From Dehalococcoidia bacterium (GTDB lineage Bacteria; Chloroflexota; Dehalococcoidia; DSTF01; WHTK01), in the NCBI GenBank assembly GCA_035293185.1, contig DATDOP010000014.1:1-31226 (forward strand): a stretch of 31,226 nucleotides of DNA, given 5' to 3'. This document shows positions 9,324-19,354 of this stretch, one piece after another. The notes beneath the pieces were generated by a model. It saw nothing but the letters and a program-made list of their open reading frames with translations, searched no databases and was not told the origin of the DNA. The number at the start of each line of letters is the position of its first letter. Position 1 is the stretch's first letter. The translations under genes and the position numbers were made by a program.

Positions 9324-10751
9324 ATGAGGTCTCTCGGCCTGCTGAAGGGCCTGACGGAGGCGGAGGTCAGGCTGCTCGTCGTGCTGGGCGTCGGCGCCTT
9401 CGTGCTAGCGAGCACGTACAGCAGCATCAACGTGGCGCTGCCGGAGATTCAGCGCGAGTTCGACGTTAGCCTGTCAGCGCTGAAGTGGGTCTCGATCATC
9501 GGCGCGATCATGGTGGCGAGCCTGTCGTTGAGCTTCGGACGCGTCGGCGACCTCGTGGGACGCAGGCGCATCTACAAGGCCGGCATCATTATCTACACGC
9601 TGGGCTCGGGGCTGACGGCGCTGTCGATGTCGTTCCCGCAGTTGATGGCTTTTCGCGTGTTCATGGCCATCGGCCTGGCGATGTCCAACCCGCTGGCCGG
9701 GGCGATCATCGCCGCGACGGTGGCGCCGGAGCGGCGGGGGCAGGCGGTGGGCATCTTCGCCTCGTTTCAGGCCGCGGGGCAGCTCACCGGCCCGACGTTC
9801 GGCGGGATCATCCTGGACTTGCTGAGCTGGCGGGCGATCTTCGTCAGCTACCTGGCGATTGGCATTGTGCTCTGCGTCGCGCAGCAGTTCTTCCTCAAGG
9901 GCACGGAGGAGCGGCGCCACGAGGCGTTCGACTATCCCGGCGCCGTGTTGCTGCTCGTCGGTTACCCTTCGTTGCTAATTGCCCTCAGCGTGGGGCCGGG
10001 CTCTGGTTGGGGCTCCCTGCTGACCCTGGGTTGGTTTGCCGTGGCCGCCGTGGGCCTCGCCAGTTTCACCGTCCGGGAGTTGAGGTTCGATAAGCCGATC
10101 TTCCACTTTCGCTTCTTCCGCAGTTCGACGTTTTGCGTAGCCATGTTTACGCTGGTGGTGGCGTCGTTCGTGCAGAACCCGATCACGCTGTTTGCGCCCC
10201 TCTATCTGCAGAAAGTGCTGACCGTCGATCCGCTGACCGTCGGCTTCGTCATGATGGCGCTGCCGCTTTCGACTCTCATCGCCGGTCCGATCGGGGGCAG
10301 CCTTGCTGACCGGTACAACCCCCGCATCGTCGCCGGGGCCGGCGTGATGATCACCCTGCTCGCGGTCCTGATCTATTCGCGCCTCGGCGTGGACGAGACC
10401 CTGCTGCCGGTCGTGTTCGCACTAACACTCGTTGGTTTGGGAGCCAGCCTGTTCCGGCCGGCCAATCAGGTCGCGGTGTACGCGCAGACCGAGCGTCGCG
10501 ACTTCGGGGCGCTCGCCGCCATGCTGGTGTTGATCCAGAGCCTCGCGGGGACGCTGGGCACTACAATCGCCGTGGCCGCGAACGAGACCCGGGCGACGGG
10601 CGACGACCCCGCGAACTTCGTCAAGGGGCAGCAGTTCACGTTTACGGCGCTTCTGCCGCTGCTGGCCCTGTCTGTGCTCGTCTCGTTCATCGGAAGAGCG
10701 ACCTCGGGCAGGAAAAAGGCCGTCGAGGGCGAGCTTGAAGTCACCGGCTAG
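9324..10751 (+). CDS. MFS transporter, DHA2 (EmrB/QacA-like) drug:H+ antiporter family
   Basis: Many hydrophobic helices; INVALPEIQREF, FGRVGDLVGRRRIY (motif A), GPTFGGIILDLLSWRAIF, FDYPG. Confidence 0.92.
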   Translation: MRSLGLLKGLTEAEVRLLVVLGVGAFVLASTYSSINVALPEIQREFDVSLSALKWVSIIGAIMVASLSLSFGRVGDLVGRRRIYKAGIIIYTLGSGLTALSMSFPQLMAFRVFMAIGLAMSNPLAGAIIAATVAPERRGQAVGIFASFQAAGQLTGPTFGGIILDLLSWRAIFVSYLAIGIVLCVAQQFFLKGTEERRHEAFDYPGAVLLLVGYPSLLIALSVGPGSGWGSLLTLGWFAVAAVGLASFTVRELRFDKPIFHFRFFRSSTFCVAMFTLVVASFVQNPITLFAPLYLQKVLTVDPLTVGFVMMALPLSTLIAGPIGGSLADRYNPRIVAGAGVMITLLAVLIYSRLGVDETLLPVVFALTLVGLGASLFRPANQVAVYAQTERRDFGALAAMLVLIQSLAGTLGTTIAVAANETRATGDDPANFVKGQQFTFTALLPLLALSVLVSFIGRATSGRKKAVEGELEVTG

Positions 10752-10774
10752 GCAGCCGAGAACGGGGGCAGCGT

Positions 10775-11584
10775 TTGGCGACTAACGAGACGTATCAGGT
10801 CTTCGCCGTGCGATACGCCAGGCGCGACGCCAAGCGCGTCGACCACTTTCTCGACAAGGCCGGCGTGCCCAACCCGGACGGACCAATGCCGATGGACTAC
10901 TTCGTCTGGCTGGTGCGCAACTCCTCTCGCACTCTGGTCGTCGACACCGGCTTTACCGAGCCCGTTGGGACGCGCCGTGGACGCACCTATCTCCGCACAC
11001 CCGCCGCGGGCCTCAAGCTGCTCGATGTCGACGCAGGGTCCGTTGAAGACGTGATCGTCACGCACATGCACTACGACCACGCCGGCACCGTGAGCGACTT
11101 CTCGAAGGCCCGGCTCCACCTGCAGGAGCAGGAGCTGCGCTGGGTCACGAGCAGCGAGATGTTCGCGCGGGGCGCCCGCGGCTCCTTCGAGGTGGACGAC
11201 GTGGTCAACATGGTGAGGGGGCTTTACGACGAGCGAGTGGAGCTGCACGACGGAGACTGGGAGGCGGCGCCGGGCATCAGCGTGCACCTGATCGGCGGGC
11301 ACACGCCTGGCATCCAGGTGGTGCGCGTGAACACGGATCGCGGCGCCGTGGTCCTGGCGTCTGACACGACGCACTACTACGAGAACATGGAGACGGGCCG
11401 CCCCTTCGTGACGACGCACGACGCAGCGAAGGTCCTCGCCGGCTTCAAGACGCTGCACCAGCTGGCGGAGTCGCCGAAGCACATCGTCCCGGGGCACGAT
11501 CCGCTGGTCATGCAGCGCTACCCGGCCGCGTCGGCGAAGCTCGAAGGCGTAGCCGTCCGGCTGGACGCCCAGCCGTCCTACTGA
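10775..11584 (+). CDS. Metallo-beta-lactamase fold N-acyl homoserine lactonase family protein
   Basis: THMHYDHAG (HxHxDH), GGHTPG, LASDTTHYY, VPGHD; TTG start. Confidence 0.88.
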   Translation: MATNETYQVFAVRYARRDAKRVDHFLDKAGVPNPDGPMPMDYFVWLVRNSSRTLVVDTGFTEPVGTRRGRTYLRTPAAGLKLLDVDAGSVEDVIVTHMHYDHAGTVSDFSKARLHLQEQELRWVTSSEMFARGARGSFEVDDVVNMVRGLYDERVELHDGDWEAAPGISVHLIGGHTPGIQVVRVNTDRGAVVLASDTTHYYENMETGRPFVTTHDAAKVLAGFKTLHQLAESPKHIVPGHDPLVMQRYPAASAKLEGVAVRLDAQPSY

Positions 11585-11610
11585 TCCTGGCTTCGAGGTC
11601 GATCTGGGCG

Positions 11611-12471
11611 TCAGGCCGCGGGCTGGCGATTGGACCGAAGACGGCCCTTGCCTCTGCCGAACCAGAGGCGGCGGCCGGACTCCCAGGCGTTACCGATTAG
11701 GAGCGCGGCCGGCAGGTAGTAGACGGCGCCCAGGGTCATGAACACGAGATACGCCAGGGTCGCGACCATCAGGCCGTAGACCACCTGGTCTTCATAGCGG
11801 ACGGGCGAGGTCGGCGGGTCGTCCAGCATGAAGAAGGCGAAGAACAGCGCTGCCTGTGCGTCCGGCGTGCGAAAGATCTCAGAGGCCGCGCCGGCCTGAC
11901 CGAACAGGGCCGCGATGGTGAACAGGCTCAGGTAGGCGCCGAAGAACGCGAGGATCATCGGCAGTTTGTTCGTGTGATCGGCCAGGTAGTAGCCGGTTAC
12001 CCCCAACGCGACCAGGCCGAGGATGCCTACGTCCGGCAAGGCGCCCCACCAGCTCTGACCAGAGCCCAGAAAGACGCCGGACACGACCAGGCCGGCGGCA
12101 GCGGGGTTGAGTACGTTGGACCAACGCGTGCGCAAGAGGTGCTTCGAGGCGATAGCGGCGGTCACTGCGAGGACCACGGTAGAGTCGGCTTCTTGTGGTC
12201 GCAGGATGAAGGCGACGATCGCTCCGGTGAGGATCGCCCCATCCGGCAGCAGCCATTCTCCGCGCCGGATCAGGCTGATAGTGAGATCGAGCGCAGCAGC
12301 CACGGCCGTCGCGAGCAGGAGGTTGTGCACGATTCGGCCGTCCGGGGCGGAAGCGATGGCGAGGACGGCCAGCGCGGCGAAGATCGCGATCAGGATGCCC
12401 TTGGGGGTCCGGAAGAACCGAAGGGATGGCAAGACGAGCTGAGCCGGCTTAGTCGAGGCGATGGGCGTCAT
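11611..12471 (-). CDS. RnfD/NqrB-like membrane protein
   Basis: Hydrophobic; DGAILTGAIVAFIL, AIASKHL, NVLNPAAAGL, FFAFFMLDDPPTSP motifs of the NQR2/RnfD/RnfE family; ATG overlaps the upstream apbE stop (ATGA). Confidence 0.8.
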   Translation of the reverse strand: MTPIASTKPAQLVLPSLRFFRTPKGILIAIFAALAVLAIASAPDGRIVHNLLLATAVAAALDLTISLIRRGEWLLPDGAILTGAIVAFILRPQEADSTVVLAVTAAIASKHLLRTRWSNVLNPAAAGLVVSGVFLGSGQSWWGALPDVGILGLVALGVTGYYLADHTNKLPMILAFFGAYLSLFTIAALFGQAGAASEIFRTPDAQAALFFAFFMLDDPPTSPVRYEDQVVYGLMVATLAYLVFMTLGAVYYLPAALLIGNAWESGRRLWFGRGKGRLRSNRQPAA

Positions 12472-13376
12472 GCCAGGTAGGTCGCCAGTCCAGGTGTCGA
12501 GATGAGCCTGCCATCAGACGTGAACATCAGCCCCTCGACGCCCTGACGTTGCAGAAACTGTGAGGCATTCTCTGCCCCCAGGACAAACGCAGCCGTGGAC
12601 AGCGCATCGGCCAGCATGGCGGAGGGCGCAACGACCGTGACGCTGGCAAGGGAAGCTGCGGGAGCTTGCGAACCTGGCTCGAGGAGGTGATGGCCGGATT
12701 CGGTTCGCCGTTCGTAGTCCCCCGAGGTGCAGACGGCGCCCTCAGTTAGAGACACCACAGACAGCAGTTGATCGGGACGTCTGGCATCCTTGACGCCGAC
12801 TTGCCACGGAGCGCCAGCGGCGTTTCGGCCCCGCACAAGCACGTCGCCGCCGGCGTTGATGGCGAAGTTGCCCAGAGGCGCCAGTTCGGCGCCGGCGAGG
12901 TCGATTGCGAAGCCCTTGGCGATGGCGCCGAGGTCGAGCAGCAGGGGTTGGCGTAACATCACGGTGCCGGCCACCGGATCGAGAATCACGTCGCGGTAGG
13001 TGGTGTCGCTGACGGCGATGCCAGACGACCCAGCCGTGCCGGTGAGGTAGCTTCGATTGAAGCCGCGGGCCTCCATCGCCGCGCCAACCGTCGGGTCGAA
13101 GGCGCCGCCGCTGTCGCGTGCAACTTCCAACGACATCTCGATTGCGCGCAACAGCAACGGCGTCACTGGCACCGGGCGGCCGGCGGTCTCACACAACCGG
13201 CGCAGCTCGCTGGCCCCGTCGAACCGGTTGCAGACCCGCTCGACTTCGGCGAACCAGCCGAACGCGTTTTCGACCAGCCCGGCGGCGCGATCGCAGTCGC
13301 CGGGCAGCGGGATCTCGATGGTGACGAGTGTGTCCATGTAGATGCGGGTTTGGACGTAGCTCCAACCGTCTGACAT
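12468..13376 (-). CDS. apbE: FAD:protein FMN transferase (ApbE family), copy 1
   Basis: MDTLVTI, GAFDPTVG, LDLGAIAKGFAID, NAGGDV, CTSGDYER, HHLLEP, ADALSTA; no signal peptide or lipobox. Confidence 0.92.
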   Translation of the reverse strand: MSDGWSYVQTRIYMDTLVTIEIPLPGDCDRAAGLVENAFGWFAEVERVCNRFDGASELRRLCETAGRPVPVTPLLLRAIEMSLEVARDSGGAFDPTVGAAMEARGFNRSYLTGTAGSSGIAVSDTTYRDVILDPVAGTVMLRQPLLLDLGAIAKGFAIDLAGAELAPLGNFAINAGGDVLVRGRNAAGAPWQVGVKDARRPDQLLSVVSLTEGAVCTSGDYERRTESGHHLLEPGSQAPAASLASVTVVAPSAMLADALSTAAFVLGAENASQFLQRQGVEGLMFTSDGRLISTPGLATYLA

Positions 13377-13381
13377 GTTCT

Positions 13382-14014
13382 CTAGCCCTGCTTGGCCTGC
13401 GCCAGAGCCTTTGAGACGGCGGTCTTGTAGGCAGTAGAGCTATCGGTGGCGCCGGAAACGTGGTTCACCGGGACCGTCTGCTGCGATACAACCGACTTGA
13501 CCAGGGAGGCAACGTCCGAGCAGGGGTAGCGCGTATTGCAGCTGCTGATCGAGGCGGAGACGATCTTGCCGTTCTGGATTACGACCGTGGCCTGGATGCT
13601 GCCGTGGCGGCTGGTGCCGGCGCCAACGTACGTGCCGTCCCTGTAGCCCGCTGTCGTGCCAGGGATGGGACTTGCCGTTGCGGTCGGAGGTGTCGTCGTG
13701 GTGCTGCCGGCCCTACCTGCGCCAGCTGCCGTTGTGGGGCTCGGCGGGGCGGAGGTCGAGGGGGACATAGGAGCACTGGCGTTGGTGGCAACAGTGCGCT
13801 GGGTCGCTTGGCCAGGCACGTCAGTCGAGACGACGCCGGCTTCGGCCGCCAGCTTGTCGACGGATGCTTGTGTGCTGACGTAGCCGATGGTGTAAATCGA
13901 CGTGATTGCTGCGGCGCTCAAGGCGAGAAGGCTGCCGCTGAGCTTGCGGCGGCTTTTCTTCACCTCGTGAACGGGCGGTATCTGGATCCGTGGTTCTTCC
14001 TGTGGCGGGAGCAT
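13382..14014 (-). CDS. Membrane-anchored/exported FMN-binding domain protein
   Basis: SRRKL followed by a hydrophobic helix, Thr/Pro/Ala linker, YRDGTYVG...GSIQATVVIQNGKIVS, and the flavinylation motif VSGATDSS (SGAT at 13456-13445). Confidence 0.9.
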   Translation of the reverse strand: MLPPQEEPRIQIPPVHEVKKSRRKLSGSLLALSAAAITSIYTIGYVSTQASVDKLAAEAGVVSTDVPGQATQRTVATNASAPMSPSTSAPPSPTTAAGAGRAGSTTTTPPTATASPIPGTTAGYRDGTYVGAGTSRHGSIQATVVIQNGKIVSASISSCNTRYPCSDVASLVKSVVSQQTVPVNHVSGATDSSTAYKTAVSKALAQAKQG

Positions 14015-14103
14015 CCTCGGGCCTCACATCTCTTCGCGGCCGTTGATTCCGTGGCCCGGCAACGGCGACTAACGTCAGACTAGCGAAGCGGCCTGGCGAA
14101 GTG

Positions 14104-14131
14104 TTTAGGCTTCTGGTAAGCGATTGCTAAA
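14104..14131. promoter_or_regulatory. AT-rich operator-like element upstream of the FMN-binding gene
   Basis: TTTAG-N18-CTAAA inverted ends; on the minus strand TTTAG/CTTAC/CCTAA recur with 11-bp period. Weak. Confidence 0.25.
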
Positions 14132-14199
14132 TGAGTGCGAAGGCCATCCCGCTTAGCCGCAACAAGTCAGGACGCCCTCACGCAGGTAGACCGAGCAGT

Positions 14200-15252
14200 T
14201 CAATCCTCCGACTCGTCCTCATGCTCCGGCTCGTCGTGCTCTTCGCGATCTTCCTGGTGCTCCTCATCCTCGCCGCCTTTTGAGTCCTCGTCCTCGTGTT
14301 CGTCTTCAACCTCGGGCCCATCTTCGTCTTCGTCTCCGTCATCATCCCCACCGCCTGTACCTCCGGCGGTGGGTGTGCCGCCGGGCGTGGATGCGACGGC
14401 AGTGGGTATTGCCCCGGGGGAAGACTTGCGGTCGTCGTCCCCGCCGTCGGAGTCGTCATCCTCAGCTTCGATCTCCAGAGCCCTGAGCGTGCCGTCACTC
14501 AGGCGCAGGACCTTCACCTCGACGTAGGAGCCCACGCGGATCGGTCCTTCGATCTCGGTGTCACCAGTGATCGCGATGGCGTGTTCGGTCTGACCGGCGC
14601 GCAGGCGGAGGACATCGCCGGTCATGGCGATGACGGTGCCAAAGAGACGATCCTTGACCTCGACCGCGCTGGCGACCACGCCGCTGTCGGAGCGGTTGCC
14701 CTTGAGGACCACGGTCTGGCCGGCGTTGAGCGAAGAAGCCTGCAGGGTATTACCGAAGCTGTCCGTCAGCACGGTATCGCTGCTCAGCTGGATCAGCTCG
14801 GCTGAGCCGGCGGTGCTGATCGTGACGGCTCCGTTGCTGATTTCCGACACGCTGCCTTCGATGACCACTGCTTCGACCCTGGCCGGGCCGTCGCCGTTCA
14901 AGGCCGGCAATCCCAGGATGAACGCCAACGCCAGGGCCGCCGCGGCGAGGGATGCGCCGGCCAGAAGAGGAGGTCGGGCGAAGGCGGCCAGGAGACCCCG
15001 CGAAGCCGGCGCAAATGTAGGCTCCCTGGCGGCATCGAGCTGTCTTACCAGCTGGAGGAGCTCCTGCTGCCGGCGTGCGGCGGCGGAAGGCGCGGGCGAA
15101 ATCGCCAGCAGCTCTTGTCCCGTCTGATGAGCAAGCCGTACCGCTTGATTGAGCTGGTTACGCCAGGCTGGGACAGTGGCCAGGAAGGCCTCAACGGCAG
15201 CGGTATCGCCGGAGAGGTCCAGGGCTGTTTCGAGTGCTTCGTCGTAGTTCAC
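14200..15252 (-). CDS. Putative anti-sigma factor: N-terminal helical domain, TM helix, two DUF5666-like domains, acidic/His tail
   Basis: GTG start 4 bp after the ECF sigma stop; one TM (LLAGASLAAAALALAFILGL); IEGSVSEIS...GQTVVLKG and LFGTVIAM...GSYVEVK...ALEIEAEDD repeats. Role inferred from position. Confidence 0.7.
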   Translation of the reverse strand: MNYDEALETALDLSGDTAAVEAFLATVPAWRNQLNQAVRLAHQTGQELLAISPAPSAAARRQQELLQLVRQLDAAREPTFAPASRGLLAAFARPPLLAGASLAAAALALAFILGLPALNGDGPARVEAVVIEGSVSEISNGAVTISTAGSAELIQLSSDTVLTDSFGNTLQASSLNAGQTVVLKGNRSDSGVVASAVEVKDRLFGTVIAMTGDVLRLRAGQTEHAIAITGDTEIEGPIRVGSYVEVKVLRLSDGTLRALEIEAEDDDSDGGDDDRKSSPGAIPTAVASTPGGTPTAGGTGGGDDDGDEDEDGPEVEDEHEDEDSKGGEDEEHQEDREEHDEPEHEDESED

Positions 15253-15256
15253 TGCC

Positions 15257-15919
15257 TTATCCTGCGGCCTTCTCGTCCACCGACATCCTGCGTTGGAGGG
15301 TTGTTAGCGCCCGGTGCTGCAACTGCTTCACAGCGCCTGTGCTCTTGCCCATGAGGGCGGCGGCTTCGGCCAGGCTGCAGCCATCCACGAATCTCAGCTG
15401 GATGACGGTCTTCTGGTCGTCAGTAAGGTCATCGAAGGCGACGAGGAGGTCGGCGCGTGTTTCGGCGTCCGTCGCCGGACTGGACTCGTCCAGCCAGGTC
15501 TCTTCGAGTGGCACCCGCGGCCGCCGAAGATCAGCCTTGAGGTAATCGGCTGTCAGGTTACGCGCGATTCTGTAGAGCCACGCCCGGAAGGGCACGCCGC
15601 GATAGCGGTAGCTGCGGATGTTCGCCGCCGCCTCCGCGAAAGTCTGGGCGGCGATGTCTTCGGAGACGCTGCTCTGCTTCGTCCGGACGTAGACCAGGCG
15701 GAAGATCGACGTGAAGTAGCGCTCGAAAACCTCTCGCCAGGCTTCAGCCTCGAATGCGGCGAGCTGACGGACCAGAGTCGCTTCGTCAGCCGGGAACACG
15801 ATTGTCTCTGTGACTTCGATGGGTCGCCTCACGGTACCCCTGACTGCCGGCGCTGTATCCAGGAATTCCTGGCTCACACGCTTTCTGTCTAAGGTTAAGA
15901 CTCCGTTCTCTCTGAGCAT
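15257..15919 (-). CDS. ECF RNA polymerase sigma factor
   Basis: AWREVFERYF, SEDIAAQTFAEA, FRAWLYRIARNLTADYL, LTDDQKTVIQLRFVDGCSLAEAAALMGKSTGAVKQLQHRAL; true start may be a downstream GTG. Confidence 0.92.
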   Translation of the reverse strand: MLRENGVLTLDRKRVSQEFLDTAPAVRGTVRRPIEVTETIVFPADEATLVRQLAAFEAEAWREVFERYFTSIFRLVYVRTKQSSVSEDIAAQTFAEAAANIRSYRYRGVPFRAWLYRIARNLTADYLKADLRRPRVPLEETWLDESSPATDAETRADLLVAFDDLTDDQKTVIQLRFVDGCSLAEAAALMGKSTGAVKQLQHRALTTLQRRMSVDEKAAG

Positions 15920-15941
15920 CAGTGCCGAATGGTCCTGGCGG

Positions 15942-16577
15942 TCAAGCCGCGCCGGAGACCTGGCGTCCTGTCTCCCGTGCCACGGGTCGCTCCGCAGGCT
16001 TCTTCTGGCTCCTCACCGCGAGGATCCTGTAGAGGACAAAGAAGACGAGTGCAATGCCAAGGGCCAGGAAGACGTAGCGCACACCGAGGACGCCGCTGTC
16101 CGTGCCAGCCCAGATCGCGTGTACCGTCCCGCCCATGTAGGCAATGAAGGTCAGGTAGTGCAATTGGCGCCAGGCGCGCTGACCGATCCACTTTGTCAGG
16201 TAGAAGCTCAGGCTGAGCAGCGCCAGGCCGTAGAAGCTAACGATACCGACCGCGGTGGCTTCCGGCATGATCTGCGACCGCAGTGGGATCAACAGGTCGC
16301 CCACCGTGTAGTTGGCGTAGGGGTCCGGCAGCATGATAAAGGCGTGGAAGACTACCGCGCCGAGGAGGAACAAGGAAACGAACTTGTGCAGCTCGAAGAA
16401 CCAGCCGCGGGCCAGCAGGCCGTCAAAGATGCGGGAGCTGATCGCGACACCCATGATCACGGAGACGAACATCAACCCAAACGCGACGAATCCTCCGGCT
16501 CTGCCCAGATACCAGTACGTATGCAGACCAAAGTCCACTGAGTCAGGCAGGAGCGTCGCCGGCAGACCGATCAGCAT
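15942..16577 (-). CDS. Ferric reductase-like/MsrQ-like transmembrane (heme b) protein
   Basis: WYLGRAGGFVA, ELHKFVS, VFHAF, WRQLHYLTF, VHAIWAGTDS: four conserved His in TM helices. Confidence 0.85.
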   Translation of the reverse strand: MLIGLPATLLPDSVDFGLHTYWYLGRAGGFVAFGLMFVSVIMGVAISSRIFDGLLARGWFFELHKFVSLFLLGAVVFHAFIMLPDPYANYTVGDLLIPLRSQIMPEATAVGIVSFYGLALLSLSFYLTKWIGQRAWRQLHYLTFIAYMGGTVHAIWAGTDSGVLGVRYVFLALGIALVFFVLYRILAVRSQKKPAERPVARETGRQVSGAA

Positions 16578-17129
16578 TCAGGAACCCTTGGTCTTTGCGC
16601 TTGAGCCGCCGCCGGAGCTGGAGCCACCGCCGGTGGGAGCCGAGGCTCCGGTTGGGCTGGAACCTCCGGTTGGGGCTTGAGCCGGTGGGCTCGATCCGGC
16701 GGTAGTGCCGCCGCTATTGCCCGCGCCGGCGGACGGCTGGCCGCCGGTAGACGCCGTGGTGGTGTCGGTCGGGGCCGTCTGGCGCGTGGTTGCGGGCGGT
16801 TGCGTCGCCACCAGCGGGATCGATGTGGGGTTTGAGGGCGGCGAGGTTGGTAATGACTGGCTCTGGCCCGCTGCAGAGGCGGTGACGTTGCCTTGCGAGT
16901 CCACCACACGAGAGACGACCACGACGCGGCGGATGATCACGGGCGGCGGCGTCGCGGTAGGGACGGGAACCTCTGTTGCTACGACCTCTTCAACTACGGG
17001 CGCGACAGCCGCTGTCTCCGGGCTCGCTGCGGTCCACTGAGGCCAGGCCAGCGCTGCCCACACCAGGGGAGTCGCGACGATTGTGCCCGTGACCAGGACG
17101 AGCTTCGTTCCCAGGTACTTGATCCTCAT
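16578..17129 (-). CDS. Membrane-anchored low-complexity protein with TGAS motif and C-terminal AKTKGS
   Basis: N-terminal hydrophobic helix; Pro/Thr/Ser/Gly-rich body; PTGASA at 16652-16641; stop directly abuts the ferric-reductase-like ATG. Confidence 0.75.
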   Translation of the reverse strand: MRIKYLGTKLVLVTGTIVATPLVWAALAWPQWTAASPETAAVAPVVEEVVATEVPVPTATPPPVIIRRVVVVSRVVDSQGNVTASAAGQSQSLPTSPPSNPTSIPLVATQPPATTRQTAPTDTTTASTGGQPSAGAGNSGGTTAGSSPPAQAPTGGSSPTGASAPTGGGSSSGGGSSAKTKGS

Positions 17130-17166
17130 CGGCTAACTCGCCCGCCCGGGCTGCGGGGCTCGCGGC

Positions 17167-17661
17167 CTAGTCGTCATCTTCGTGTTCTTCGTGCTCGTCT
17201 TCGTGTTCGTCTTCGTGTTCGTCGCGGTCGTCATCATCGTCGTCACTGGAGCCGTTCTTGGGGCTGCTGGTCGGGTTAGTTGGCGCGCGTGCAGCCGGCG
17301 GCTGTTGCGTGGGCTGAGGCGCCTGGCGCGGCGCGGCGGTTGCCGCCGTGCCGGTTCCAGTCGATTGCGTGATGGCAGCCGTCGGCTGTGGCGTAGGTGC
17401 GGCAGGCGGCGCAGTCGCGACTACTGGCGCGCTCGCTGGAACGTCCACGTAGACGTACTCCGTGATAACGACGGGCTCTTGTTGCACGTTCGCTGCCGGC
17501 GGAGGCGCGGCAGGCTCGATAGTCTCTTCAACGGCCGCAGCTTCGTCATTCGTTTCAGACCTGGCCTCAAGCCAGCCAGCCTGAGAGGCGAACGACATCA
17601 GCGCGAAGGTCACGACGATGGTTAGAGAGAAAGACAGGGCAAGGGCAATCCTGCGGGACAT
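17167..17661 (-). CDS. Exported/anchored low-complexity protein with Asp/Glu/His-rich C-terminal tail
   Basis: MSRRIAL plus hydrophobic helix ending ASQA; GGAGG RBS; tail DDDDDDRDEHEDEHEDEHEEHEDDD. Confidence 0.8.
   Translation of the reverse strand: MSRRIALALSFSLTIVVTFALMSFASQAGWLEARSETNDEAAAVEETIEPAAPPPAANVQQEPVVITEYVYVDVPASAPVVATAPPAAPTPQPTAAITQSTGTGTAATAAPRQAPQPTQQPPAARAPTNPTSSPKNGSSDDDDDDRDEHEDEHEDEHEEHEDDD
17179..17223. repeat. Short tandem repeats (about 12-bp period, EHED) encoding the acidic His tail
   Basis: ttcgtgttcttcgtgctcgtcttcgtgttcgtcttcgtgttcgtc on the plus strand. Confidence 0.7.
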
Positions 17662-17682
17662 AGGAACCTCCAGTATTTGTCG

Positions 17683-18633
17683 TTAGTCTGCGTGCCAGCC
17701 GGATGTCTGCTTCAGCGACCCATCAGCAAGGACGAGCAGGCCGTGCACAGCCTCCGATTCGAGAAAAGCCAGCCCCACCTCCGGACCGAGGATCAGGGCG
17801 CACTTGGCAAAGACGTCCGCTTCCACGGCGCGAGGTGCAATCACAGTTACGCCGATGACACCGCTTTGCGCCGGCAGACCGGTACGCGGATCGATGAGGT
17901 GATGCGCCCAGCCACCGCCGACGCGCCAGCGCCGCTTTGTGGTCCAGGACGTGGCAATCGCCATGTCGGAAAGGCGCACCACGCCGATCGACTCTTCAGG
18001 CGCCAGCGGACTCGCGACTTCGACCCGCCAGGGAGTGCCGTCGGCTGAGAGCCCGGCAGCGTAGATGTCGCCACCCGCGTCGATCAGGAAGCCCCCGGCC
18101 CCGGTCAGCAGTGATCCAGCGCGGTCCGCGGCAGAACCTTTGCCGATGCCGCCGAAATCAAGCCGCAGACCAAGAGGGAGGGTTGCTTCGTGGCGTTCAG
18201 GGTCAAGGTCGAGGCATTGCAGCGATGGCGGCGCAGCCTTCGACGCATCCTCTGGGGCGGATTGTCCGTCCAGCAGCTCGAATGACGCGCCGTAGCCCGC
18301 CGCCTCGAGGTTGTCGATGATCAGCGGGTTGAAGATCCCTTCGGTTGTGCGGTGAAGGCGTAAGCACTCCGAGAGCAACGCCATCATTTTGGGGGAGACC
18401 GCTTCCGCGGCCTGAGGACGATTGTTGAAGCTGGAGAGCTCGCTGTCGGCTCTGAATCGGCTGAACCTTGCCTCGAAGGAGCGAAAGTACGTTTCCGCAC
18501 GCGGCAGCAGGCTCCCGTAGCGCCAGTCGGCGAGCATGATCTCGACGTCTGTATTGAACACCCGGAAGCTCGATTTCGCTTCGAGGCTCAGGCCATCGAC
18601 TGTCTGGTGAGGGTTGGCGGAATGACCCATCAC
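17683..18633 (-). CDS. apbE: FAD:protein FMN transferase (ApbE family), copy 2
   Basis: FRVFNTDV, RFSRFRADSELS, LDFGGIGKG, IDAGGDI, ATSWTTKRRW, HHLIDPRTG, ADVFAK; no signal peptide or lipobox. Confidence 0.92.
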   Translation of the reverse strand: MMGHSANPHQTVDGLSLEAKSSFRVFNTDVEIMLADWRYGSLLPRAETYFRSFEARFSRFRADSELSSFNNRPQAAEAVSPKMMALLSECLRLHRTTEGIFNPLIIDNLEAAGYGASFELLDGQSAPEDASKAAPPSLQCLDLDPERHEATLPLGLRLDFGGIGKGSAADRAGSLLTGAGGFLIDAGGDIYAAGLSADGTPWRVEVASPLAPEESIGVVRLSDMAIATSWTTKRRWRVGGGWAHHLIDPRTGLPAQSGVIGVTVIAPRAVEADVFAKCALILGPEVGLAFLESEAVHGLLVLADGSLKQTSGWHAD

Positions 18634-18733
18634 TAGTCCTATCTGCCGTCAGCGCGAAAAGGTCACGCAAGCACCAGAAAAATTCCGCAGCACACCGATG
18701 CGGGGATCTTGGCCTGGACGGCCTGATGAACCG

Positions 18734-19237: not shown

Positions 19238-19354
19238 CTATCCGGCCTTCGCCTTTGCGTCGGTGGACGGCGCCTGCCTCTGGCTGACCTGGCTCTTCTT
19301 GCTGGCCTTCTGTTTCTTGGCCTTCGAGTTGTTTCTGGGACTCTTGTCACCCAT
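19238..19354 (-). CDS. 38-aa Lys/Ser-rich small protein (below ORF-track cutoff)
   Basis: MGDKSPRNNSKAKKQKASKKSQVSQRQAPSTDAKAKAG; GAAAGGTGG RBS; consistent AAG/GCC codon use in an otherwise empty intergenic gap. Confidence 0.65.
   Translation of the reverse strand: MGDKSPRNNSKAKKQKASKKSQVSQRQAPSTDAKAKAG

Follow-up and report, generated by a model that had tools for sequence, protein, structure and literature searches.

Within the Na+-NQR, one established leg of electron transfer leads from flavin mononucleotide (FMN) on NqrC via the FMN/riboflavin of NqrB to quinone. Membrane systems encoded next to apbE, the gene of the flavin adenine dinucleotide (FAD):protein FMN transferase, have also been described, and their MsrQ-like and NQR/RNF-like forms were published as separate types (PMC8238504). 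The MsrQ-like type contains a six-helix, four-His ferric-reductase-domain cytochrome b adjoining apbE, and an FMN_bind gene is typical for it, not obligatory. The NQR/RNF-like type joins an anchored FMN_bind protein with an S-G-A-T motif to an NqrB/RnfD-like subunit without a flavinylation site of its own, again with apbE clustered; a two-subunit complex of this kind was modeled from Ktedonobacter racemifer, a member of Chloroflexota, and the Thr site is lost in its RnfD-like subunit (10.1101/2024.03.13.584918). Here, we describe a 7-kb stretch (11611-18633) of contig DATDOP010000014.1 from a Dehalococcoidia bacterium (GCA_035293185.1), where relatives of both types stand in tandem. Most probably, two flavin-linked cassettes for membrane electron transfer, called A and B below, are independent of each other here and are neighbors in this species only.

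The analyzed window is the whole contig (31,226 nt) of one metagenome-assembled genome (MAG; 2.57 Mb, 417 contigs, 73.5% complete), whose close relatives bear record titles of soil Chloroflexota. By open reading frame (ORF) listing and translation we confirmed nine consecutive ORFs on the minus strand, with the same coordinates as in an earlier note made from the sequence alone. The genes, domains, ApbE motifs (CTSGDYER/ADALST and ATSWTTKRRW/ADVFAK, the latter pair in ApbE2) and 185-bp gap listed in that note were all recovered by ORF and Pfam analysis, and its treatment of MsrQ-like and RnfD/NqrB-like ApbE systems as separate known types agrees with the literature cited above. The genes fall into two sets. 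Cassette A (18633-14200) encodes, in this order, ApbE2, a protein with an acidic/His tail, a second low-complexity protein (the tail protein), an MsrQ-like protein, a sigma factor of the extracytoplasmic function (ECF) type and a putative DUF5666 anti-sigma factor. Cassette B (14014-11611) comprises three genes, whose products are an FMN_bind protein, then ApbE1, then a short protein of the RnfD-like kind, and this set was also found in loci L009-L017 of relatives. Each cassette departs from its published type, A being a variant of the MsrQ-like and B of the NQR/RNF-like system. The MAG possesses two ApbEs, 34% identical to each other, and one FMN_bind protein, all within the window.

Linkage of the Two Cassettes

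According to the earlier note, the nine genes work as a single, integrated redox system of the cell surface, in which the ECF sigma factor located between two parallel conduits controls both. We searched 60 relatives with the RnfD-like and MsrQ-like proteins, fetched 17 loci and mapped the nine window proteins onto them. In addition, the RnfD-like alignment was scanned over approximately 185,000 species genomes, which gave 262 relatives; the best 80 loci, from Chloroflexota, Acidobacteriota, Gemmatimonadota, Binatia and others, were analyzed with flanks of up to 10 kb. The cassette B trio recurs in the same order in these 80 loci (FMN_bind in 77/80, ApbE1 in 76/80, RnfD-like in 80/80), and none of them carries an MsrQ-like, ApbE2-type, ECF, anti-sigma or tail-protein gene within 10 kb. 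Likewise, the cassettes are linked in none of the eight relatives which possess both gene types (G001, G003, G005, G006, G012, G017, G048, and G054), where the genes either lie on separate contigs or have 26 kb or more between them; the conclusion also holds on seven relatives, without G048. The nearest pair is that of G012, in which an RnfD paralog (32% identical) is positioned 26 kb from cassette A. Thus, the two halves were never linked in any genome searched, an outcome that the earlier note itself had named among those that would refute its reading.

These data make an integrated system unlikely, and three further features stand against it: cassette B is widespread in phyla whose loci show no nearby cassette A gene, the ECF pair is always located 3' of the MsrQ-like gene and not 5' of cassette B, and an element conserved upstream of apbE2 is missing from the gap and from the cassette B loci. 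In favor of integration, of the six same-genus genomes in which a close cassette B was found, five also have a close cassette A elsewhere in the genome. Yet, genome co-occurrence carries little information, as 14 of 17 same-genus genomes have an MsrQ-like match and 6 of 17 an RnfD-like one. The adjacency itself also speaks for integration, since it is real in the sampled population and is no assembly artifact. The junction (2 kb) was found in Logan contigs from runs of several soil studies. Two such contigs, each from another soil run, cross the gap, namely record 6 of X2 (13491-15514, 3 differences) and record 11 of X3 (13784-14378, 0 differences), and both gap edges are covered by a population approximately 97% identical in a 2020 sediment run (records 27 and 28). 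A chimera produced by metagenome assembly or binning would be in line with the fragmentation of the MAG and with an arrangement that is unique among the genomes searched, but the independently assembled contigs across the junction and the sediment population on both its edges leave this explanation with next to no probability, and we rejected it. One X2 contig matches the window up to approximately 14069, inside the gap, and continues with at least 255 nt of unrelated sequence; by this divergence, a related population may carry cassette B in another context.

Several points weigh against two independent units and, in part, for the integrated system. Both cassettes lie on one strand, separated by a short spacer in which no terminator was called, and read-through from A to B, and hence an influence of the ECF factor on B in this species, is possible. 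Besides, the counts of absent genes are provisional given the completeness of the MAG.

We found no further conserved neighbor around either cassette (17 fetched loci; best 80 RnfD-like loci). A conserved terminal enzyme was sought near both and rejected, as the recurring extra genes turned out to be shadow ORFs, hydrolases or acetyl-CoA synthetase in a few loci; the absence of an encoded terminal enzyme had been noted before and is borne out. Genes encoding dienelactone hydrolase and Abhydrolase_11 proteins occur near cassette B in relatives and 4-5 kb off in the window, and these shared surroundings weakly place cassette B near its usual context. Cassette A, in turn, shares no flanking context with any relative. 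Nothing that we found functionally links cassettes A and B, and their neighborhood is probably due to chance.

Table 1. Coordinates of the cassette features in the window (Pfam cut-offs: ApbE 25.6, FMN_bind 22, NQR2_RnfD_RnfE 27.7, Ferric_reduct 28 bits)
Feature	Position	Strand	Characteristics
Promoter-like element GCGTGACCTTTT-N10-GCAGATAGGAC	18636-18668	-	End 2 nt upstream of the apbE2 start codon (GTG)
ApbE2, FAD:protein FMN transferase homolog, non-canonical clade	17683-18633	-	Pfam ApbE 185.1 bits
Acidic/His signal-anchored protein	17167-17661	-	MSRR N-terminus, one transmembrane (TM) helix, disordered linker, Asp/Glu/His tail
Ser/Thr/Gly/Pro-rich signal-anchored tail protein	16578-17129	-	Ends T-K-G-S-stop (Ser183); candidate ApbE2 substrate
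Putative MsrQ-like/ferric-reductase-domain di-heme b membrane protein, 211 aa	15942-16577	-	Ferric_reduct 21.6 bits, below the cut-off of 28
ECF-type sigma factor	15257-15919	-	Sigma70_r2, r4 and ECF domains (regions 2 and 4)
Putative anti-sigma factor	14200-15252	-	N-terminal helical domain, one TM helix, DUF5666 43.8 bits, Asp/Glu/His tail
185-bp spacer between cassettes	14015-14199	no strand	Bridged by independent contigs
NqrC/RnfG-like FMN_bind protein	13382-14014	-	FMN_bind 24.9 bits
ApbE1, canonical-type FMN transferase	12468-13376	-	Pfam ApbE 201 bits
Short NqrB/RnfD-like membrane protein, 286 aa	11611-12471	-	NQR2_RnfD_RnfE 39.5 bits

Cassette B, a Probable Minimal NQR/RNF-Like Complex

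Cassette B corresponds to the two-subunit NQR/RNF-like complex of the literature in a minimal form. Its FMN_bind protein starts with a basic N-terminus and a single TM helix, which a Pro/Thr/Ala linker connects to the FMN_bind domain; within the domain lies the N-H-V-S-G-A-T site, with Thr190 as the predicted point of FMN attachment. This site is canonical with respect to the D-x-x-[S/T]-G-A-[S/T] motif except for Asn in place of Asp, a position where substitution by Ala has minor effects only (reviewed in PMC12052999), and we found [ST]G[AS][ST] near the C-terminus of 74/77 FMN_bind orthologs. The ApbE1 ORF begins 5 nt past the FMN_bind stop, and its product holds C-T-S-G-D-Y-E-R as well as the ADALST motif, with Asp257 and Thr261.

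The RnfD-like protein was modeled with AlphaFold2 from a 31-sequence alignment (pLDDT 85, pTM 0.82). The 15 best fold matches in PDB comprise RnfD and NqrB chains exclusively (TMq 0.59-0.68), among them 8RBQ_D, 9ERI_D, and NqrB chains of Vibrio cholerae. The RnfD-like profile matches Azotobacter vinelandii RnfD (E 1e-10) over residues 49-143 and 206-310 only, and the alignment contains no counterpart of residues 144-205, the segment within which we take the flavinylated Thr of RnfD to lie. The window protein has no [ST]GA[ST] motif either, and neither Cys nor His is found among the invariant residues of the family. It ends shortly after the last helix, with no nicotinamide adenine dinucleotide (NAD)-binding domain either in it or in the 80 relatives (~280 aa). 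Such a domain was considered for the longer RnfD-like ORFs of L012, L017, and L019 and rejected, since Pfam gives PF03116 only. A C-terminal extension of approximately 210 residues was seen on the RnfD-like gene of seven loci, such as L019:1799-3289, and of L012:8941-9600 (minus strand); in the latter, the extension reads as one further TM helix plus an unknown domain rich in Ser and Gly, with no Pfam match.

The membrane-subunit fold and the covalent-FMN motif of the FMN_bind partner are common to cassette B and to the NqrB/NqrC and RnfD/RnfG pairs, whereas no NqrA/D/E/F or RnfA/B/C/E genes were found near cassette B. The published NQR/RNF-like definition requires a C-terminal cytosolic PF00175 fusion (PMC8238504), which the cassette B protein does not possess; hence, the cytoplasmic donor cannot be NAD(P)H bound by the RnfD-like protein. 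The taxonomic range differs as well, as NQR/RNF-like systems were reported in Actinobacteria and the candidate phyla radiation (PMC8238504) and cassette B occurs in Chloroflexota, Acidobacteriota, and Gemmatimonadota. In the mechanism that we propose, ApbE1 would attach FMN to Thr190, the FMN-carrying NqrC/RnfG-like protein would dock on the NqrB/RnfD-like membrane subunit, and electrons would be exchanged between the tethered FMN and a partner in the membrane or cytoplasm. Given an RnfD-like protein without an NAD-binding domain or conserved metal ligands, this partner would most likely be the quinone pool, reached via a non-covalent flavin, so that the route would mirror the NqrC-NqrB-quinone leg of Na+-NQR.

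The FMN_bind/ApbE/short RnfD-like trio is widespread in soil members of the three phyla just named, with the 262 relatives of the genome scan. Without an NAD-binding domain and without a signal peptide, cassette B falls outside the published operational definitions, and surveys of flavin-based extracytosolic electron transfer probably missed it.

Some copies of cassette B in relatives deserve separate mention. In L016 (G006:C2:516000-535900), at about 9600-11970, the region homologous to ApbE1 is broken up over several frames or pieces and the RnfD-like ORF comes in two parts, so this is probably a pseudogenized copy. The G003 genome holds two copies, L013 (G003:C24) and L014 (G003:C4), with equal percent identities to the window proteins, near-identical upstream sequence and the same Abhydrolase_11 gene downstream of each, which suggests that the cassette was duplicated either recently in the genome or in the assembly. 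Another motif, TCCAAT...TTTC.AA...GAGA, precedes the FMN_bind gene in L013-L016; it is conserved in three relatives and absent from the window.

Cassette A, a Probable MsrQ-Like System With a Distinct ApbE

Like the published MsrQ-like system, cassette A has a putative six-helix, four-His ferric-reductase-domain cytochrome b next to apbE, but it differs in the lack of an FMN_bind gene and of an NAD-binding fusion, in its two anchored low-complexity proteins and Lys-for-Thr ApbE, and, in this genus, in the ECF/DUF5666 pair. The intergenic distances are 0-37 nt and the upstream element occurs once in the MAG, by which we take cassette A to be one six-gene operon. It is whole in the same-genus loci L001-L005, and L006 is cut off at the MsrQ-like gene, where its contig stops. 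The core of ApbE2, one or two proteins with an Arg-Arg/TM (RR-TM) start, the tail protein and the MsrQ-like protein is kept in L001-L005, L007, L008, L130, L131, and L133, and could also be read from the ORFs of L129; contig ends interrupt L006 and L132. The linkage is otherwise constant with one exception, L128 (G057:C41:1-7000), which encodes the acidic/His and MsrQ-like proteins as well as a short tail protein with TRAS as its C-terminus, and in which no ApbE2-type gene was found in the 7 kb fetched. In a sample of 300 genomes of the phylum, the ApbE2-type gene was detected in 80 of the 301 searched (G000 included), and 25 of 29 fetched ApbE2-type loci have an MsrQ-like gene within 1.5 kb on the same strand.

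The MsrQ-like family is recognized by Ferric_reduct in seven of nine orthologs (best E 1.8e-7; Pfam). His64/His78 (H-x13-H) and His140/His153 (H-x12-H) are invariant and spaced as in the ferric-reductase-domain superfamily, and the ortholog profile covers both His pairs of PDB 8QQ7/8QT6 (E 0.023), entitled "FAD-binding FR-type domain-containing protein". The window protein itself has no NAD- or FAD-binding domain.

ApbE2 keeps Asp273 and carries Lys277 instead of the Thr of the A-D-x-x-x-T motif. We found Lys at this position in 100% of 42 ApbE2-type sequences and Thr in 100% of 79 ApbE1-type sequences. This Thr is presumably an Mg ligand, as we take it to be in the Ftp structures of Treponema pallidum. 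In Escherichia coli ApbE (2O18/4XGV), too, a Thr is aligned with Lys277. The glycine of T-S-G is variable among ApbE2-type sequences. In turn, the Ser of T-S is present in 100% of both clades, the His of HH in 98% and 100%, and the Asp of A-D in 98% of ApbE1-type sequences, with Asp or Glu in the ApbE2 type and Asp in the window. Hence, by motif position rather than direct alignment to the V. cholerae sequence, ApbE2 retains the residues that correspond to the conserved triad Ser241, His257, and Asp285 of V. cholerae ApbE (PMC12052999).

What such an enzyme would modify is suggested by the tail protein, whose stop directly abuts the MsrQ-like start. Among 17 family members picked by N-terminal homology alone, 15 end with T-x-[GA]-[ST]-stop and the other two with S-T-G-S and T-H-V-S, while the frequency of the T-x-[GA]-[ST] 4-mer inside the tails is 0.8%. 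The Ser/Thr/Gly/Pro/Ala-rich tails cannot be aligned across the family, and only the C-terminal motif is conserved; an internal T-G-A-S of the window protein was therefore dismissed as a flavinylation site. FMN_red proteins provide a published example of flavinylation on C-terminal extensions without structure (10.1101/2024.03.13.584918), and we infer that the C-terminal Ser of the tail protein is a candidate ApbE2 substrate and a new type of site. The FMN_red extensions fold onto the flavodoxin-like domain and have canonical motifs, whereas the tail protein has no folded domain and bears its motif at the extreme C-terminus, with Lys/Arg for Gly. We tentatively propose a new class of ApbE substrates, in which the terminal Ser/Thr (T-x-[G/A]-[S/T]-COOH) of a membrane-anchored disordered "leash" would be flavinylated by a Lys-type ApbE. 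If true, the leash would present a mobile FMN that takes electrons from the di-heme MsrQ-like protein.

It is also possible, though in our opinion doubtful, that cassette A is no covalent-flavinylation system at all, and that ApbE2 is an FAD hydrolase, a flavin-trafficking protein or a non-covalent flavin loader. The tail C-terminus would then be a docking or recognition signal, with the MsrQ-like protein or a PDZ-type protease feeding the anti-sigma pathway as possible partners. The clade-wide Lys and the variable T-S-G glycine agree with this explanation, as do a tail motif without the canonical Gly and an ApbE2 without an export signal. Furthermore, no FMN_bind domain, even a cryptic one, was found in cassette A by Pfam (window) or by a lineage-specific FMN_bind hidden Markov model (all cassette A loci), and DUF2271 and DUF3570 domains were not found in cassette A. 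Opposed to it are the retained triad residues, a tail motif that ends with Ser/Thr after Gly/Ala, as known sites do, and the flavinylated FMN_red extensions. Since the tail motif is also kept in loci without the ECF pair, a role limited to anti-sigma signaling is disfavored.

Certain results count against flavinylation of the tail protein. The end A-K-T-K-G-S matches D-x-x-[S/T]-G-A-[S/T] at positions -3, -1, and 0 only, and in most family members Lys/Arg occupies the place of the canonical Gly, which makes the match partial. The ApbE2-type/MsrQ-like pairs of the wider phylum (loci with ±1.5 kb only) have no tail-protein gene between them, and a T-x-[GA]-[ST] C-terminus was sought on the MsrQ-like proteins of these pairs and not found.

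Provided that the tail protein is the substrate, the two-heme MsrQ-like protein would carry electrons across the membrane to an acceptor that is probably FMN, attached by the Lys-type ApbE2 to the C-terminal Ser. Metal cations may serve as ligand or substrate, judging by the acidic/His tails and DUF5666 domains. A paralog-specific flavinylation, as put forward in the earlier note, fits our data insofar as each ApbE keeps to its own cassette and bears a clade-specific active-site signature; at the level of sequence, these features are consistent with cognate pairing. No flavinylation substrate is known for the MsrQ-like cassette, but it does have a conserved tail C-terminus and a distinct ApbE clade, and so it makes the "orphan ApbE" problem of Meheust et al. 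(PMC8238504) directly testable.

The acidic/His protein contains the conserved motif V-I-T-E-Y-V-Y-V-D-V-P, and its orthologs keep the RR-TM start and T-x-Y-V-Y-x-D. Paralogs in other families have a DUF5666-like C-terminal domain (sub-threshold, 17.7-26.5 bits) plus acidic/His segments, an ectodomain make-up which they have in common with the anti-sigma factor. No Pfam family was assigned to the acidic/His or tail proteins; the atlas search with the former returned unnamed Chloroflexota clusters only, and the word-indexed protein search with the latter 3 matches only. In-frame length variants of 3 or 12 nt were seen at 14200-14330 and 17167-17240 (runs X5, X3, and X4), which indicates that the low-complexity acidic/His and Ser/Thr/Gly tails vary in length within the population.

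The Putative Sigma/Anti-Sigma Pair and Regulation

The best NCBIfam model for the sigma factor is the BldN-family TIGR02952 (128 bits, below the cut-off of 206). The sigma gene lies 3' of the MsrQ-like gene in L001-L006, and the DUF5666 gene, which begins 4 nt after it, is conserved together with it in the same loci. No anti-sigma domain family was detected in the product of 14200-15252, so its anti-sigma role is deduced from position and architecture; in the literature, we found only incidental mentions of DUF5666. The two genes directly follow the cassette A core only in L001-L006. They are missing from L007 and L008, which belong to another family, L133 shows only a sigma-like match 1.4 kb upstream, and in none of the other families sampled is the pair found beside cassette A. 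The ECF pair thus belongs to cassette A as its 3' end in same-genus relatives, and the assumption of a regulator shared by both halves is not supported.

The element upstream of apbE2, GCGTGACCTTTT-N10-GCAGATAGGAC, is conserved in the window and in L001-L005. A position weight matrix built from these six sites gave one strong match in the MAG (41.3 bits; next best 18.1). It scored at most 12.5 bits in cassette A loci without the adjoining ECF pair and at most 8.3 bits in cassette B loci, the FMN_bind upstream regions included, and found nothing in the 185-bp gap; as the training sites score high by construction, the absence elsewhere is the informative result. Because the presence of the element tracks the adjoining ECF pair, we predict that it is an autoregulated ECF promoter or operator, from which the pair would autoregulate the cassette A operon. 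Its layout, CGTGAC/CGTAAC-N16, is presumably like that of BldN-type promoters. In the gap, neither a terminator-like nor a sigma-70-like site was called, and the RNA fold is no better than that of shuffles (z = 0.23). A likeness to GCGTGA...GCTAAG, spotted there by eye as a possible shared promoter for cassette B, scored below threshold and was dropped.

Export of the ApbE Proteins

Neither ApbE has a signal peptide or lipobox, and the longest ORFs start directly with the catalytic fold. That of ApbE2 begins with MMGHSANPHQ and has no hydrophobic N-terminus, and in many ApbE1 orthologs from several phyla the open frame before the homologous region is only 2-11 residues long. In turn, an outward orientation is predicted for the FMN_bind domain and the tails (positive-inside rule, applied by eye). 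Signal-less enzymes with outward predicted targets pose a difficulty, as to the site or timing of flavinylation, for the flavin-linked cassettes as proposed here, and because of the missing export signals the term "extracytoplasmic flavinylation" used in the earlier note is uncertain. If both ApbEs modify outside targets, modification would occur before translocation or an unrecognized export route would exist. Export by twin-arginine translocation was rejected as the answer: TatC is present, yet only 40/77 FMN_bind orthologs have a twin Arg in the first 60 residues, many having KK.

Cytoplasmic ApbEs are described with soluble substrates only (PMC12052999). The ApbE of Klebsiella pneumoniae is signal-less like those of the window, but it flavinylates the soluble cytoplasmic fumarate reductase (PMC12052999), whereas the candidates in the window are membrane-anchored and predicted outward. 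The 2021 survey discarded clusters without any signal peptide (PMC8238504), which may be the reason why these variants have stayed undescribed.

Flanking Genes

The flanks on the opposite strand are ordinary: one contains genes for a metallo-beta-lactamase-fold protein and a major facilitator superfamily transporter, and the other encodes a histidine-kinase relay. At 19238-19354 (minus strand), in the interval that separates the histidine-kinase operon from cassette A, we read by eye a small ORF for a Lys-rich basic peptide of 38 residues (MGDKSPRNNSKAKKQKASKK...).

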